DNA of 64,000 nt from Escherichia phage EC128, in sequence record ON210139.1. One strand, 5' to 3'. Positions 9,647 through 50,130 of this stretch are shown in pieces (the first letter of the stretch is position 1; each line of letters opens with the position of its first letter). Below the pieces are notes generated by a model, which was not told where the DNA came from, made no database searches, and saw nothing but the letters and a program-made list of their open reading frames with translations. Position numbers and translations under genes: made by a program.

Positions 9647-10604
9647 AACTATCAATAAGGGTATCTACTTCGGTAAAGAAATCTCTGGAACTTTTGAGCT
9701 CTTAGGTGAATGGTTCCCAGATAATGCTCCGGTAGATGCACAAGGAGATGGTAAAGTTTTTGTTGAAATTGACGGTAAGCGTCGCGGTGTTTGGGTTTAC
9801 AAATCAGACATTTCATATGATGGTGTAAAAGTTGAAGAAGTTAAAGAATCATATGAAGATATGAAAACCCGCATTAATAAAAGATTTAATGTTATGGGAA
9901 TGATGACGAATGGTATTATTAACGGAAACATTCGTTCATTAATTATCTCTGGTGCGGCGGGTATTGGTAAAACGTATTCTTTAGATAAAGCTTTGAATAA
10001 AGCAAATGATAATGGATACATTGAATATAAAAGCATTAACGGTAAAATCTCCGGTATCGGTCTTTATGAACAACTTTGGAATAATCGTGAAGAGAATTCT
10101 GTCCTTTTGATTGATGATGTGGATGTTTTCTCTGATATGGACATTCTTAATCTTCTGAAAGCTGCTCTGGACACTGGAGAGACCCGTAAAGTCTGCTGGA
10201 GCACTGCATCTTCTTACTTAGAAGAAAAAGGCATTGAGCGTGAGTTTGAATTTAAAGGAACGATTGTTTTTATCACAAACGTTGACATTGACCGCGAATT
10301 AGACCGTGGTACTAAACTTGCTCCACATTTACAAGCATTAGTGTCCCGCTCAGTTTATTTAGATTTGGGTGTTCACACTAATGAAGAAATTATGGTCAGG
10401 GTTGAAGATGTTATTCTTTCAACTGACATGATGCAAAAGCGCGGTCTTTCTGATGAAGAAACTTATAAAGCATTATCATGGATGAAAGTCAATGTTAATC
10501 GTTTACGCAATGTTTCACTGCGTACTGCTCTTTATCTTGCTGACTTTATTATGACCGACAAAAACGGTTGGGAAGAAATCGCTGAAACAGTATTATTAAA
10601 ATGA
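9636..10604 (+). CDS. AAA+/P-loop ATPase
   Basis: Walker A SGAAGIGKT, Walker B LLIDDVD; start trimmed to ATG 9636. Confidence 0.65.
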   Translation: MKTVTINKGIYFGKEISGTFELLGEWFPDNAPVDAQGDGKVFVEIDGKRRGVWVYKSDISYDGVKVEEVKESYEDMKTRINKRFNVMGMMTNGIINGNIRSLIISGAAGIGKTYSLDKALNKANDNGYIEYKSINGKISGIGLYEQLWNNREENSVLLIDDVDVFSDMDILNLLKAALDTGETRKVCWSTASSYLEEKGIEREFEFKGTIVFITNVDIDRELDRGTKLAPHLQALVSRSVYLDLGVHTNEEIMVRVEDVILSTDMMQKRGLSDEETYKALSWMKVNVNRLRNVSLRTALYLADFIMTDKNGWEEIAETVLLK

Positions 10605-11320
10605 AAAAATATTTTACTATCTATAAAACTGAAATATTAAATTTAAAGACAGGTATTAAGAAATACTATTATGGTCGACATATAACTAATAATATCAATG
10701 ATTCGTATGTTGGTAGTGGAAATTATATAGAACGTGTAAAAGTGTCAAATGACCACATATTATCAAAAACGGTTTTAGAAGTTTTTGATAATTATGATAA
10801 AATGGTACAAGCTGAAATATTATATATCATGGCAGGTAAATTGAAATATGGGAAAAACTGTGTTAACCTGTCATACGGGGGTGAAGGAGGAAAGGTTGCA
10901 GATGAAACTAGGATAAAATGCAAAAAGCATTCTATAAATTTATGGAAAAATCCTAATCATATACAGCATATGAAGAAAAAGATGAAAGAGGTCACATCCA
11001 CGCCGGAAGCTAAATTAAACACTTCAATAAAAACTTCGCAACGATATAAGGACCCGGTTTTTGTTAGAAAAGTTAGTAATATTATTAAAAAGAAACTAAG
11101 CAATCCTGTAGTAAAAGAAAAGCATATTAATGGAATTAAAGCTGCAAAGCGTTCTCATTTAACTATATGGCAGTATGAAGATGAATTATTCGAGCTCTGG
11201 AAAGAAACTAAATGTGGATGGAGAAAATTTACAAAGGAAGCTATAAAACACGGATATCCAAATGAACCGTATCGTAGTATGGTATCAACTTTTCAGAAAA
11301 GACATTTAGAAGAATCCTAA
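10601..11320 (+). CDS. free-standing GIY-YIG-like homing endonuclease (possibly mobD by position)
   Basis: N-terminal YYYGRH...YVGSG, repeated NUMOD-like motifs; paralog of 21849, 40071, 49456. Confidence 0.6.
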   Translation: MKKYFTIYKTEILNLKTGIKKYYYGRHITNNINDSYVGSGNYIERVKVSNDHILSKTVLEVFDNYDKMVQAEILYIMAGKLKYGKNCVNLSYGGEGGKVADETRIKCKKHSINLWKNPNHIQHMKKKMKEVTSTPEAKLNTSIKTSQRYKDPVFVRKVSNIIKKKLSNPVVKEKHINGIKAAKRSHLTIWQYEDELFELWKETKCGWRKFTKEAIKHGYPNEPYRSMVSTFQKRHLEES

Positions 11321-11402
11321 GACAAAAAGGCAGTTCAGAAATAGATTATATGGACTGCCATTAAAAAGATGACTAGAATTAAACTGGTGAATGGAGGTAG
11401 TG

Positions 11403-11705
11403 ATGTTATACTCAAAGGCTCGTGAAATTTACGAAACTAAGATTAAAGAAGCTGTATTTCAGTTCGCAACGACAATGCGATGGACAAATGATTGGGAGTA
11501 TTCAAAAAATCATAAGAAGCCCATGGTGACAAGAAAGGCTCATATGTTAGTGTTAATAGACCGTGAGCAGATTAAAGCCCGAGAAGCCCTCCAGAATCAT
11601 AAAAAGGCTGCCTTTGAATGGTTTATGGATAACACTGCTCCTGAGACTAAGAAAGCGGTAAGCGCGTGGTTCAGTGGAAAAAATTGTGAAAGAAGTTTCT
11701 TTTAG
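11403..11705 (+). CDS. hypothetical protein
   Basis: SD GGAGGT then ATG 11403; 100 aa. Confidence 0.5.
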   Translation: MLYSKAREIYETKIKEAVFQFATTMRWTNDWEYSKNHKKPMVTRKAHMLVLIDREQIKAREALQNHKKAAFEWFMDNTAPETKKAVSAWFSGKNCERSFF

Positions 11706-11765
11706 TGGTTTACAAGACCGTTCCTCTGTGGTACTATACAACTATCAACTACGGAGGAACAGAAA
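11703..11765 (+). repeat. PeSL-like module, partial copy
   Basis: GTTTACAAG...GGTACTATACAACTATCAACTAC shared with copies A and B. Confidence 0.45.
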
Positions 11766-47548: not shown

Positions 47549-48109
47549 ATGATTAATAAAATTGTGCATGAAATGGCTTTAAACGGAGATTCATATAAAA
47601 TATCTGCCGTGGTTGAAAATTTCATACTTAATAAAGTAAAAGAATATTTCACTGATTGTTCAGTTAGTTATCAAGAAAAAATGGTTTTAACCGATGATAC
47701 TGAAAAATCAAATAATTTATTTTGTTCGAATTTTATAACTAAGAAGCGTACTAGAAGATTTGATATTGTTATTTCTCGCAATGGTAAAAAGCATATAATT
47801 GAAATTAAACATCAAGTTGGTGGAGGTACAGCTATTGATTCGGTTGGAATATATTTAGAAGATAAAGAGAAATTAAAAGAATACACAAAAACTGAAAACC
47901 CCGTGTCATTGATGATATTAGATTTTTTGCCATGCGGATATTATCCACGTAATAAATGGACAAAAAGAGAATCATTTACTGATAATCCAACTATCCAAGC
48001 AAGGTTTAATGAATATGCTAAATCACAAAACGTGTTAGTATTACTATCAAATACATATGATGAAGAATTATATAATTCGTTTTTTGCTGCAATAAATGAG
48101 AGAATATAA
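47549..48109 (+). CDS. hypothetical protein
   Basis: 186-aa ORF with SD GAGGATGATATAATG. Confidence 0.55.
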
Positions 48110-48888
48110 TGCTAGGAGCTATCGCGTATACAGGTAATAAACAATCATTATTACCTGAACTTAAGCCTCACTTTCCAAAATATGACAGATTCGTGGATTT
48201 ATTTTGTGGAGGTTTATCAGTGTCTTTGAATGTTAATGGCCCTGTATTGGCTAATGATATTCAAGAACCAATTATTGAAATGTATAAGCGTCTTATTAAT
48301 GTATCATGGGATGACGTTTTAAAAGTAATAAAGCAATACAAACTATCAAAAACATCAAAAGAAGAGTTTTTGAAATTACGTGAAGATTATAATAAAACTA
48401 GAGATCCTCTTTTACTTTATGTTCTTCATTTTCATGGATTTAGTAATATGATTCGTATAAACGATAAAGGAAATTTTACTACTCCATTTGGAAAAAGAAC
48501 TATAAACAAAAATAGTGAAAAACGCTTTAATCACTTTAAACAAAATTGTGATAAAATAATCTTTAGTTCATTGCATTTTAAAGATGTCAAAATTCTAGAC
48601 GGCGATTTTGTATATGTGGACCCTCCATATCTTATAACAGTTGCTGATTATAATAAATTTTGGTCAGAAGAAGAAGAAAAAGACCTTTTAAATCTTTTAG
48701 ACTCTTTAAATGATAGAGGAATAAAATTTGGGCTGTCGAATGTTTTAGAGCATCACGGAAAGGAAAACACTCTTCTTAAAGAGTGGTCTAAAAAATATAA
48801 TGTTAAGCATCTTAATAAAAAATACGTCTTTAACATATATCATTCCAAAGAAAAAAATGGAACTGATGAAGTATATATTTTTAATTAA
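48109..48888 (+). CDS. dam: DNA adenine methyltransferase
   Basis: motifs FCGG and DPPY; 259 aa. Confidence 0.9.
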
Positions 48889-48950
48889 TTGCTTACATAT
48901 TCAAATGATATAATTATTTAACTTATTGATGAATTGAAAGGAAAAATAAC

Positions 48951-49466
48951 ATGCCACATTTCAACGAATGTAGTCAACTGATCGAAGGCGCTGATAAAGC
49001 TCAAAATGAGTATTGGGATATTCTCGGTGATGAAAAAGACCCGCTGCAGGTTATGCTTGATATGCAGAAATCTTTACAGGTTCGTTTAGCAAATGACCGC
49101 GAATACTGTTATCATCCAGATAAATTAGAAACTGCCGGTGATGTTGTTTCTTGGATGCGTGAACAAAAAGACTGTATTGATGATGAATTCCGCGAACTTC
49201 TGACTTCTCTTGGTGAAATGTCACGTGGTGAAAAAGATGCATCGGCAGTTTGGAAAAAATGGAAAGCACGTTATATTGAAGCGCAAGAAAAACGCATTGA
49301 TGAAATGTCCCCAGAAGATCAGCTCGAAATTAAATTTGAGCTTGTGGATATATTTCATTTCGTATTAAATATGTTTGCTGGCCTTGGAATGAATGCGGAA
49401 GAAATCTTTAAACTTTATTATTTGAAAAATAAACATAATTTTGAACGTCAAGATAATGGGTATTAA
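48951..49466 (+). CDS. 56: dCTPase/dCTP pyrophosphatase gp56
   Basis: 171 aa, MazG-like; between dam and soc. Confidence 0.8.
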   Translation: MPHFNECSQLIEGADKAQNEYWDILGDEKDPLQVMLDMQKSLQVRLANDREYCYHPDKLETAGDVVSWMREQKDCIDDEFRELLTSLGEMSRGEKDASAVWKKWKARYIEAQEKRIDEMSPEDQLEIKFELVDIFHFVLNMFAGLGMNAEEIFKLYYLKNKHNFERQDNGY

Positions 49467-50130
49467 ACAAAAATTTTATAGAACATATATAGTAAAAGTT
49501 AGGACGCCGAAAGGCGTCTTTTGGTACGCTGGGAAACATGAATCATTTATTGTAAATCCATATGATGATAAATATCCGGGGTCAGGCAAAATACTATGGA
49601 ACATATATCGTAAGTATGGTTTTAATTATAAAATACGTTGGTCAAAATGCCATGGTTCTAGAGAAAAATCATATGAAGTTGAACGCGAGCTAATATCTGC
49701 ATTAAAACGTAAACACCCAGATACTTGCATTAATATTTCTCCTGGTGGTCAGGGTGGAGAAGGAAGAAAATGGACTGAGCAACAACGATTAGAACATAAA
49801 CTTAGATTAAACAATCCTGAAACAAAAACTCGGATGAAGAATTCACAACGTATAGCCCAAAATAGAGCAGAACGAAAAGCTCGGCAATCTGAAGTAATGA
49901 AAAAGTTTTATTCGAATGGCGGAAATAAAAAGATTTCAGAAGGAACTTCAAGGGCGCAAAGAAAAGCGCCGCATTGGCATGAACCGCTTAAAAGCGAAAT
50001 ACATGAGTTATGGGTTTCTTTAGGTAAACCAGCAACAGGCCCGGTTGTAAAGGCGCTTAAAGGAAAATATGATGTAACAAGTTCAGCTCTTAAGAATTTA
50101 ATTTACTTATTCAGAAAAGAAGATATATAA
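49456..50130 (+). CDS. segF: free-standing GIY-YIG-like homing endonuclease (SegF-like)
   Basis: FWYAGKH...YPGSG, NUMOD-like repeats; adjacent to gene 56. Confidence 0.55.
   Translation: MGIKQKFYRTYIVKVRTPKGVFWYAGKHESFIVNPYDDKYPGSGKILWNIYRKYGFNYKIRWSKCHGSREKSYEVERELISALKRKHPDTCINISPGGQGGEGRKWTEQQRLEHKLRLNNPETKTRMKNSQRIAQNRAERKARQSEVMKKFYSNGGNKKISEGTSRAQRKAPHWHEPLKSEIHELWVSLGKPATGPVVKALKGKYDVTSSALKNLIYLFRKEDI

Follow-up and report, generated by a model that had tools for sequence, protein, structure and literature searches.

The 64,000-nucleotide (nt) stretch of Escherichia phage EC128 analysed here (sequence record ON210139.1; called the window below, at its full length) carries four open reading frames (ORFs) for GIY-YIG-like endonucleases. 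We consider it very probable (about 0.9) that each of them is an independent, free-standing homing endonuclease gene of the Seg type (GIY-YIG) that spreads by intronless homing. All four were found, on the + strand, at the positions proposed in an original prediction that had been made from the sequence alone:

ORF1, 10601-11320, + strand: 239 amino acids (aa); between nrdC.10 and nrdC.9; RB32ORF093c family, uncharacterised Seg-like GIY-YIG protein
segH (ORF2), 21849-22679, + strand: 276 aa; between nrdD and nrdG
ORF3, 40071-40712, + strand: 213 aa; between gene 42 and the beta-alpha-glucosyltransferase gene; uncharacterised Seg-like GIY-YIG protein
segF (ORF4; formerly T4 gene 69), 49456-50130, + strand: 224 aa; between gene 56 and soc

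When each ORF alone was queried against 50,697 phage records, each gene appeared as a presence/absence polymorphism at a fixed locus:

ORF1: gene carried by 66 records (97-99.7% identity); flanks matched by 676 records
segH: gene carried by 72 records; flanks matched by 978 records
ORF3: gene carried by 77 records (at least 99% identity in 71); flanks matched by 757 records
segF: gene carried by 49 records; flanks matched by 771 records

The same ORFs are therefore not present at identical sites in all relatives (49-77 records with a gene, out of roughly 480-980 records of related phages; 676-978 with matching flanks), and base-by-base comparison of the junctions with insert-free relatives revealed endonuclease-free alleles at all four loci. 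The endonuclease genes were 97-100% identical between genomes whose flanks were more diverged. RB32 contains ORF1 and lacks the other three, and T4 contains segF only. A published table of seg-like genes per genome (T4 7, T6 6, RB3 4 and RB32 2; PMC2993671) likewise shows an uneven distribution among close T-even relatives.

As predicted, the four genes sit between conserved genes and overlap the upstream stop, by 4 nt (ORF1 and nrdC.10), 8 nt (segH and nrdD), 10 nt (ORF3 and gene 42) and 11 nt (segF and gene 56). On the downstream side, a 4-nt ATGA overlap joins ORF3 to the start of the next gene, and segH shares such an overlap with the start of nrdG. According to gene maps and alignments of the junctions, all four are free-standing, none lying within an intron or intein; the sole intron in the window is the nrdD/I-TevII intron.

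Megablast searches with the flanks of each ORF retrieved Tequatrovirus genomes in the hundreds, with 95-99% identity; among them were T4, T2, T6, the RB phages and a large number of recent isolates. Comparison of the window with the annotated RB32 and T4 records gave the gene order on the + strand as nrdC.11, nrdC.10 ... nrdC, 49, nrdD, nrdG ... 55, a-gt, 47, 46, 45, then 44, 62, regA, 43, imm, 42, glucosyltransferase, uvsX, 40, 41 ... 61, dam, and finally 56, soc ... dda, dexA, 39, which is the order of the T4 early genes read in the direction of transcription. We therefore assigned the window to the early region of a Tequatrovirus, a T-even phage of the T2/T6/RB32-like kind. At 40709-41551, the window encodes a 280-aa protein that corresponds to the beta-glucosyl-HMC-alpha-glucosyltransferase found in RB32 and T6 and not to the T4 beta-gt, and the glucosyltransferase locus of EC128 was accordingly classed as T2/T6/RB32-like from its sequence.

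Membership in the GIY-YIG/Seg family

Profiles, predicted structure and homology support the assignment of all four proteins to the GIY-YIG/Seg family. First, the Y-x-G...Y-x-GSG module noticed in the original prediction was borne out by a four-way alignment (A1), in which Y8, Y23-x-G25-x-H27, Y36-x-G38-S39-G40, N89 and G93-G94 were invariant. The spacing from GIY to YIG is 11 residues in segH and ORF3, 13 in segF and 15 in ORF1. Pairwise BLASTP among the four proteins gave E-values of 2e-12 to 4e-3 despite the tiny database, and all four matched the PHROGs family phrog_314 ('homing endonuclease') with E-values of 2e-23 to 2e-60 (1.8e-31 for ORF3); thus, their likeness is not due to chance. 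BLASTP searches against the T4 Seg proteins gave 2e-34 to 4e-24 for segH (1e-29 to 2e-34 with SegB, SegC, SegD and SegE), 8e-12 for ORF1 (with SegB) and 4e-12 for ORF3 (with SegC).

Second, profile comparisons linked these proteins to I-TevI. A profile of 50 ORF3-family sequences (A2) matched the full-length I-TevI catalytic domain (1LN0) with an E-value of 0.012, a mixed Seg profile headed by ORF1 matched the I-TevI catalytic domain at 3e-4, and hhalign against the ORF3 profile gave 3e-5 for ORF1 and 2e-7 for segF. In the profile alignment with 1LN0, Y8 and Y23-x-G25 of A1 aligned with Y6 and Y17-x-G19 of I-TevI, and E65 and N82, which are invariant or nearly so among the 50 ORF3-family members, aligned with E75 and N90. 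Pfam searches with these 50 members matched SegE_GIY-YIG (PF19835) in 17, GIY-YIG (PF01541) in 7 and NUMOD3 in 34. The AlphaFold2 model of ORF3 (pLDDT 88.8) has a beta-beta-alpha-beta-alpha core, and its best Foldseek match in the PDB was the I-TevI catalytic domain 1MK0 (probability 1.0, TM 0.66), followed by the GIY-YIG restriction enzyme PD-T4-3.

The four ORFs had been described as paralogs sharing NUMOD-like motifs, and both descriptions held in part. Common ancestry is apparent in the N-terminal catalytic domain of ~95 aa (27-37% identity), whereas the C-terminal halves are unrelated, save for a short NUMOD3 match between segH and ORF3. A recent duplication of the four ORFs was ruled out because homology is limited to the N-terminal domain; with unrelated C-terminal halves, the genes are best seen as independently acquired cassettes that share a nuclease domain, not as duplicates. 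NUMOD-like motifs were confirmed for segH and ORF3: NPMYGK occurs exactly twice in the window, at 22512 (segH) and 40467 (ORF3), and Pfam NUMOD3 (PF07460) scored 33.8 bits in segH, against a cut-off of 20.4, and a sub-threshold 18.1 bits in ORF3. The Pfam NUMOD3 search gave no match for ORF1 or segF. Besides NUMOD3, segH had sub-threshold matches to I-TevI_DNA-bd and SegE_GIY-YIG. The architecture of ORF3 comprises the N-terminal GIY-YIG domain, NUMOD3-like repeats and a C-terminal CCHC zinc-finger-like module, of which C189, C192, H205 and C209 (C-x2-C...H-x3-C) are nearly invariant in the family.

Compared with T4 SegA-SegE, ORF1 and ORF3 share the Y..YxGxH..YxGSG..E..N..GG domain (31-38% identity over most of it, locally higher) and are likewise free-standing and gene-overlapping. 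They differ in their loci (nrdC.10/nrdC.9 and 42/ba-gt), both of which are empty in T4, and in their distinct C-terminal regions, that of ORF3 being the CCHC module. I-TevI differs further: it is encoded by the td intron, cuts no more than 25 base pairs (bp) from its own insertion site, and has an identity below 20%.

ORF1 and SegF both show a weak C-terminal resemblance to the C-terminal region of the T4 HNH enzyme MobD (BLASTP E ~6e-5 each), which suggests that DNA-binding domains may have been shuffled between GIY-YIG and HNH endonucleases. A review has called segF 'hybrid' (PMC2988022), consistent with a MobD-like C-terminus. In T4, mobD lies two genes upstream of the ORF1 site; the EC128 window contains no homologue of mobD, mobB or mobC.

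Loci, known and predicted targets, and the gene 42 allele linked to ORF3

T-even phages are a model system for free-standing homing endonucleases. Such genes are a textbook feature of this group, so that the finding as a whole is already known: segF and segH have been named and characterised, ORF1 has been described as seg-like since the deposition of RB32, and ORF3 alone is under-annotated.

The ORF at 21849-22679 was identified as segH by its sequence, with 100% nt identity to segH of PP01 and F2 and 99.7% to that of LZ2 (AY262139.2). SegH was reportedly named in a 2005 paper by Sandegren, Nord and Sjoberg (NAR 33:6203). Relative to SegH of LZ2, U5, PP01 and T6 (99.7-100% nt identity, same nrdD/nrdG locus), no notable difference was observed. 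In EC128 the gene occupies the nrdD/nrdG site where T4 has mobC, and compared with RB32 the sequence diverges over the final ~90 nt of nrdD and over the beginning of nrdG.

The ORF at 49456-50130 was equated with T4 segF (AF158101 15606-16280) on 98.7% aa and 98% nt identity. The longest ORF in its frame begins at a TTG at 49441; the ATG at 49456 agrees with the T4 segF annotation. Gene 56 as a whole has ~77-80% identity to the segF-less RB32 and 95% to T4; this divergence is the known T2/T4 situation. A further feature lies within the gene:

GC-rich hairpin (GACGCCGAAAGGCGTC), 49503-49518, + strand: 5' end of segF

EC128 segF therefore resembles its T4 counterpart in the 56/soc locus, the 11-nt overlap with gene 56 and the 5' hairpin. 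It differs by three amino-acid substitutions and by its setting, since EC128 is elsewhere T2/T6/RB32-like, with, for example, beta-alpha-gt replacing the T4 beta-gt. In T4, segF has an 11-bp overlap with gene 56 and an intrinsic terminator in its 5' end, and SegF is an active GIY-YIG enzyme whose target is gene 56 (PMC2988022). Site-specific cleavage and preferential inheritance have been reported for both SegF (gene 56) and SegH (nrdD/nrdG region) (PMC2988022, Table 1 and text).

ORF1 is annotated in RB32 as RB32ORF093c, 'putative site-specific intron-like DNA endonuclease, similar to seg', and was also found in T6, RB3, RB5-9, RB14, RB33 and AR1, sometimes misnamed segE. The cassette replaces ~26-38 nt, including the last eight nrdC.10 codons, so that the nrdC.10 C-terminus changes from ...EEIATGYSSEINS in genomes without ORF1 to ...EEIAETVLLK in genomes with it. 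The family is narrow (two clusters in 5.8 billion proteins). Its sole distant homologue, a metagenomic sequence with 41% identity, is also located at nrdC.10/nrdC.9 and is accompanied by the same altered nrdC.10 C-terminus. The database entry of this homologue (P0071, 197 aa; L025 2870-3594) is an N-terminally truncated gene call; the full ORF behind it is intact: its start overlaps the nrdC.10 homologue by ATGA, and it encodes both the GIY and the YIG motif.

ORF3 is where new content emerged, in the form of a specific target prediction, gene 42. In genomes without ORF3, gene 42 is joined to the glucosyltransferase gene by an ATGA overlap, and the 642-bp cassette sits exactly at this junction, with the overlaps remade on both sides. 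The DNA immediately upstream contains the following feature:

Diverged 3' allele of gene 42 (dCMP hydroxymethylase) linked to the homing endonuclease gene (HEG), 39828-40063, + strand: presumed co-converted, cleavage-resistant ORF3 target region

In phage slur08, which lacks ORF3, the first 486 nt of gene 42 and the glucosyltransferase gene match the window at 100% identity; across the 236 nt that directly precede the insertion (39828-40063), 37 codons are altered, 25 of these without a change of amino acid. This tract was ~100% identical in all four ORF3 carriers examined and 60-90% identical to the window in all six ORF3-free genomes, including T4, RB32 and slur08, which share the other version. 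Database-wide, the linked allele was present at a minimum of 95% identity in 84 records and the alternative in 399; given that ORF3 itself occurs in 77, the linkage is nearly complete. The most diverged block (39841-39867) changes the conserved thymidylate-synthase (TS)-family motif RSND-VVFGF-RND to RSND-CWAGY-RND, and the block at 39994-40002 changes VYSRHFYL to VYENQFYL in what is an essential enzyme. Gene 42 of Yersinia phage MHG19, which carries an ORF3 homologue with 65% identity, also has the CWAG and VYENQFYL variants.

A similar association was observed in more distant genomes. ORF3 homologues with 45-65% identity were examined in one cultured phage and on six metagenomic contigs; all seven were located directly downstream of a Pfam Thymidylat_synt gene on the same strand, and their downstream neighbours all differed (T4-type beta-gt, helicase, NTP transferase, IMPDH and small ORFs). 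The motif variants at the other homologue loci were not uniform. It is the allele linkage together with the seven TS-family neighbours that led us to predict gene 42 as the ORF3 target. The simplest reading is that the ORF3 lineage targets a TS-family gene and travels with a resistant allele; ORF3 would then cut ORF3-free gene 42 within ~240 bp upstream of the insertion point, the likely candidate regions being the RSND-VVFGF block (39841-39867) or the VYSRHFYL block (39994-40002). A site within the linked tract would be in keeping with the behaviour of free-standing T4 endonucleases, whose cuts lie hundreds of bp away from the gene encoding them (PMC2988022). More broadly, we lean somewhat towards the view that ORF3 represents an unnamed Seg lineage specialised on the catalytic-motif region near the 3' end of dCMP-hydroxymethylase/TS-family genes in very different phages, which spreads with a cleavage-resistant allele and which in Tequatrovirus would convert the last ~240 bp of gene 42 (RSND-VVFGF to RSND-CWAGY). 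A literature search for a gene-42-associated seg gene found none within the library searched.

About 1 kb downstream of the ORF3 homologue P0041, on its metagenomic contig, lies a further ORF (L021 4243-4890) that matches NUMOD3 weakly and is possibly one more endonuclease gene of this nucleotide-metabolism cluster.

These results allow annotations to be corrected: ORF3 is a 'hypothetical protein' in almost all of its 77 GenBank records, and ORF1 is sometimes 'segE'. Near-isogenic natural genomes with and without ORF3 exist (for example, EC128 and slur08). The endonuclease genes also serve as markers of the recombination boundaries behind the local mosaicism of essential genes for nucleotide metabolism.

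Proposed homing and competing explanations

In the proposed mechanism, each gene would encode an N-terminal GIY-YIG nuclease domain of ~95 aa fused to its own C-terminal DNA-binding region, and would form a promoter-less cassette overlapping the upstream stop. With such an arrangement, low-level translation by re-initiation on the mRNA of the upstream gene is probable, a mode of expression that we infer from the gene overlap alone. On co-infection with a relative that lacks the gene, the DNA of that relative would be cut by the enzyme at a place within or close to the adjacent conserved gene; the break would be repaired by the phage recombination machinery with the endonuclease-carrying genome as template, and the recipient would thereby acquire the endonuclease gene plus flanking sequence, a process known as 'intronless homing' or localized marker exclusion. 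A homing mechanism of this type has been described for the T4 seg genes (PMC2988022). The active gene conversion that the original prediction had supposed at these junctions has the backing of experiments in the literature for segF and segH; for ORF3 it is derived from the allele linkage and for ORF1 solely from the presence/absence polymorphism, and we infer that ORF1 and ORF3 would be active enzymes.

Several results weigh against this reading. First, single-sequence searches of Pfam and NCBIfam gave a GIY-YIG match above threshold for none of the four proteins. For Pfam GIY-YIG (PF01541) and SegE_GIY-YIG (PF19835), segH alone matched, below threshold (18.6 vs 25 bits), ORF1, ORF3 and segF did not match either model, and ORF1 and segF had no match at all in Pfam or NCBIfam. 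I-TevII, which is T4-identical, was likewise sub-threshold in Pfam, and the failure was therefore attributed to model sensitivity. Thus, the HMM check suggested in the original prediction would have been misleading by itself when made with single sequences against Pfam and NCBIfam; PHROGs, family profiles and structure, used instead, placed all four in GIY-YIG/Seg. Second, Foldseek with the ORF1 model gave no match. Third, the catalytic Arg27 of I-TevI falls in an insertion relative to the Seg profile in the 1LN0 alignment and has no aligned counterpart; the Seg proteins keep YxGxH instead. The missing counterpart is common to all Seg proteins, some of them enzymes of known activity, and T4 Seg enzymes with the variant (YxGxH) motif have been reported as active (PMC2988022, Table 1). 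Fourth, promoter and terminator scans of the endonuclease genes remained at shuffle (chance) level. Finally, no diverged flank was observed at ORF1, where the flanks are 98-100% identical in genomes with and without the gene. The sequence therefore gives no target for ORF1, and with flanks so alike the enzyme probably either has the insertion junction as its recognition site or cuts genomes with and without the gene alike.

Among the alternatives, the one that survives best is that the genes are kept mainly for the benefit of the phage, through excluding competitor alleles or amplifying nearby genes, with selfish spread being secondary. We regard this as possible but rather doubtful. T6 SegB promotes segmental amplification of anti-defence genes, including the gp49.1-nrdC.1 region (PMC13096335), a region that falls inside the gene order of the EC128 window, and the exclusion of T2 markers by T4 has been credited to seg genes (PMC2988022). 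However, the low frequency of the genes (6-16% of relatives) speaks against a strong general advantage, and the sequence does not separate phage benefit from selfish spread. This explanation is compatible with homing as the mechanism and would not replace it.

A less probable alternative is that ORF1 and/or ORF3 are inactive or decaying genes kept by linkage, their polymorphism reflecting ordinary recombination or deletion rather than homing. T4 itself has defunct endonuclease genes (mobA and I-TevIII), and the very narrow ORF1 family, the lack of a diverged flank at this gene and the failure of ORF1 and ORF3 to reach any Pfam GIY-YIG threshold would agree with decay. On the other hand, both genes have remained intact, with 97-99.8% identity among the 66 (ORF1) and 77 (ORF3) genomes that carry them, whose flanks differ more, and the motif Tyr, Tyr-x-Gly, Glu and Asn are kept, being (nearly) invariant in ORF3 homologues down to 31% identity. 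Moreover, ORF3 is tightly linked to a foreign-looking gene 42 allele with a sharp boundary, as co-conversion predicts, and its homologues stay beside TS-family genes in very different phages. We therefore consider decay unlikely. Very unlikely is the idea that the proteins are mainly DNA-binding regulators with a vestigial nuclease activity, in analogy to I-TevI autorepression, since the residues of the catalytic motif are retained, nuclease activity is documented for SegF and SegH, no operator-like repeats were noticed, although no search was aimed at them, and a polymorphic distribution would be unexpected for a regulator of conserved neighbours.

Other endonuclease genes and inserts in the window

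The proposal of at least six endonuclease genes in the 64 kb was upheld, the four Seg-type genes being accompanied by I-TevII and an intact mobA:

I-TevII, 19779-20555, + strand: GIY-YIG endonuclease encoded by the group I intron of nrdD; shares 255 of its 258 aa with T4 I-TevII
mobA-type HNH gene, intact, 62411-63229, + strand: 272 aa, GTG start; downstream of gene 39

The nrdD group I intron was detected by Rfam RF00028 (Intron_gpI) at 19508-19739 with 98.2 bits. The MobA-type ORF matched phrog_655 (E 2.5e-57) and, below threshold, Pfam HNH; it overlaps gene 39 by 23 nt, as stated for mobA in PMC2988022. At mobA, the T4 reference AF158101 has approximately nine single-base insertions or deletions within ~200 nt and is annotated with a mobA pseudogene and gene 60.1. 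This comparison suggests either that the EC128 gene is the functional ancestor or that the older T4 sequence contains errors there.

Two mosaic patches, at 3001-3500 and 16001-17000 (the tk.4/vs and nrdC.2-nrdC.3 regions), have 64-73% identity to both T4 and RB32, in surroundings of 95-98%; no endonuclease gene adjoins either of them.

Among the window inserts absent from T4 and RB32, no seventh endonuclease gene was found. The ORF at 47549-48109 was considered as a seventh homing endonuclease and rejected as a DpnII-like fragment outside the endonuclease-gene families. This 186-aa ORF (+ strand) lies directly upstream of dam and abuts its start; it is mostly absent from T4 and RB32 and is present in 146 phage records, including T2, as a 'hypothetical protein'. 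Its weak matches to PADLOC REase_II (E 9e-5) and Pfam DpnII (E 0.0045) cover the C-terminal part of these models, and no PDB sequence matched it. These sub-threshold matches are suggestive of a DpnII-like (GATC) nuclease fragment adjoining the phage GATC methylase.

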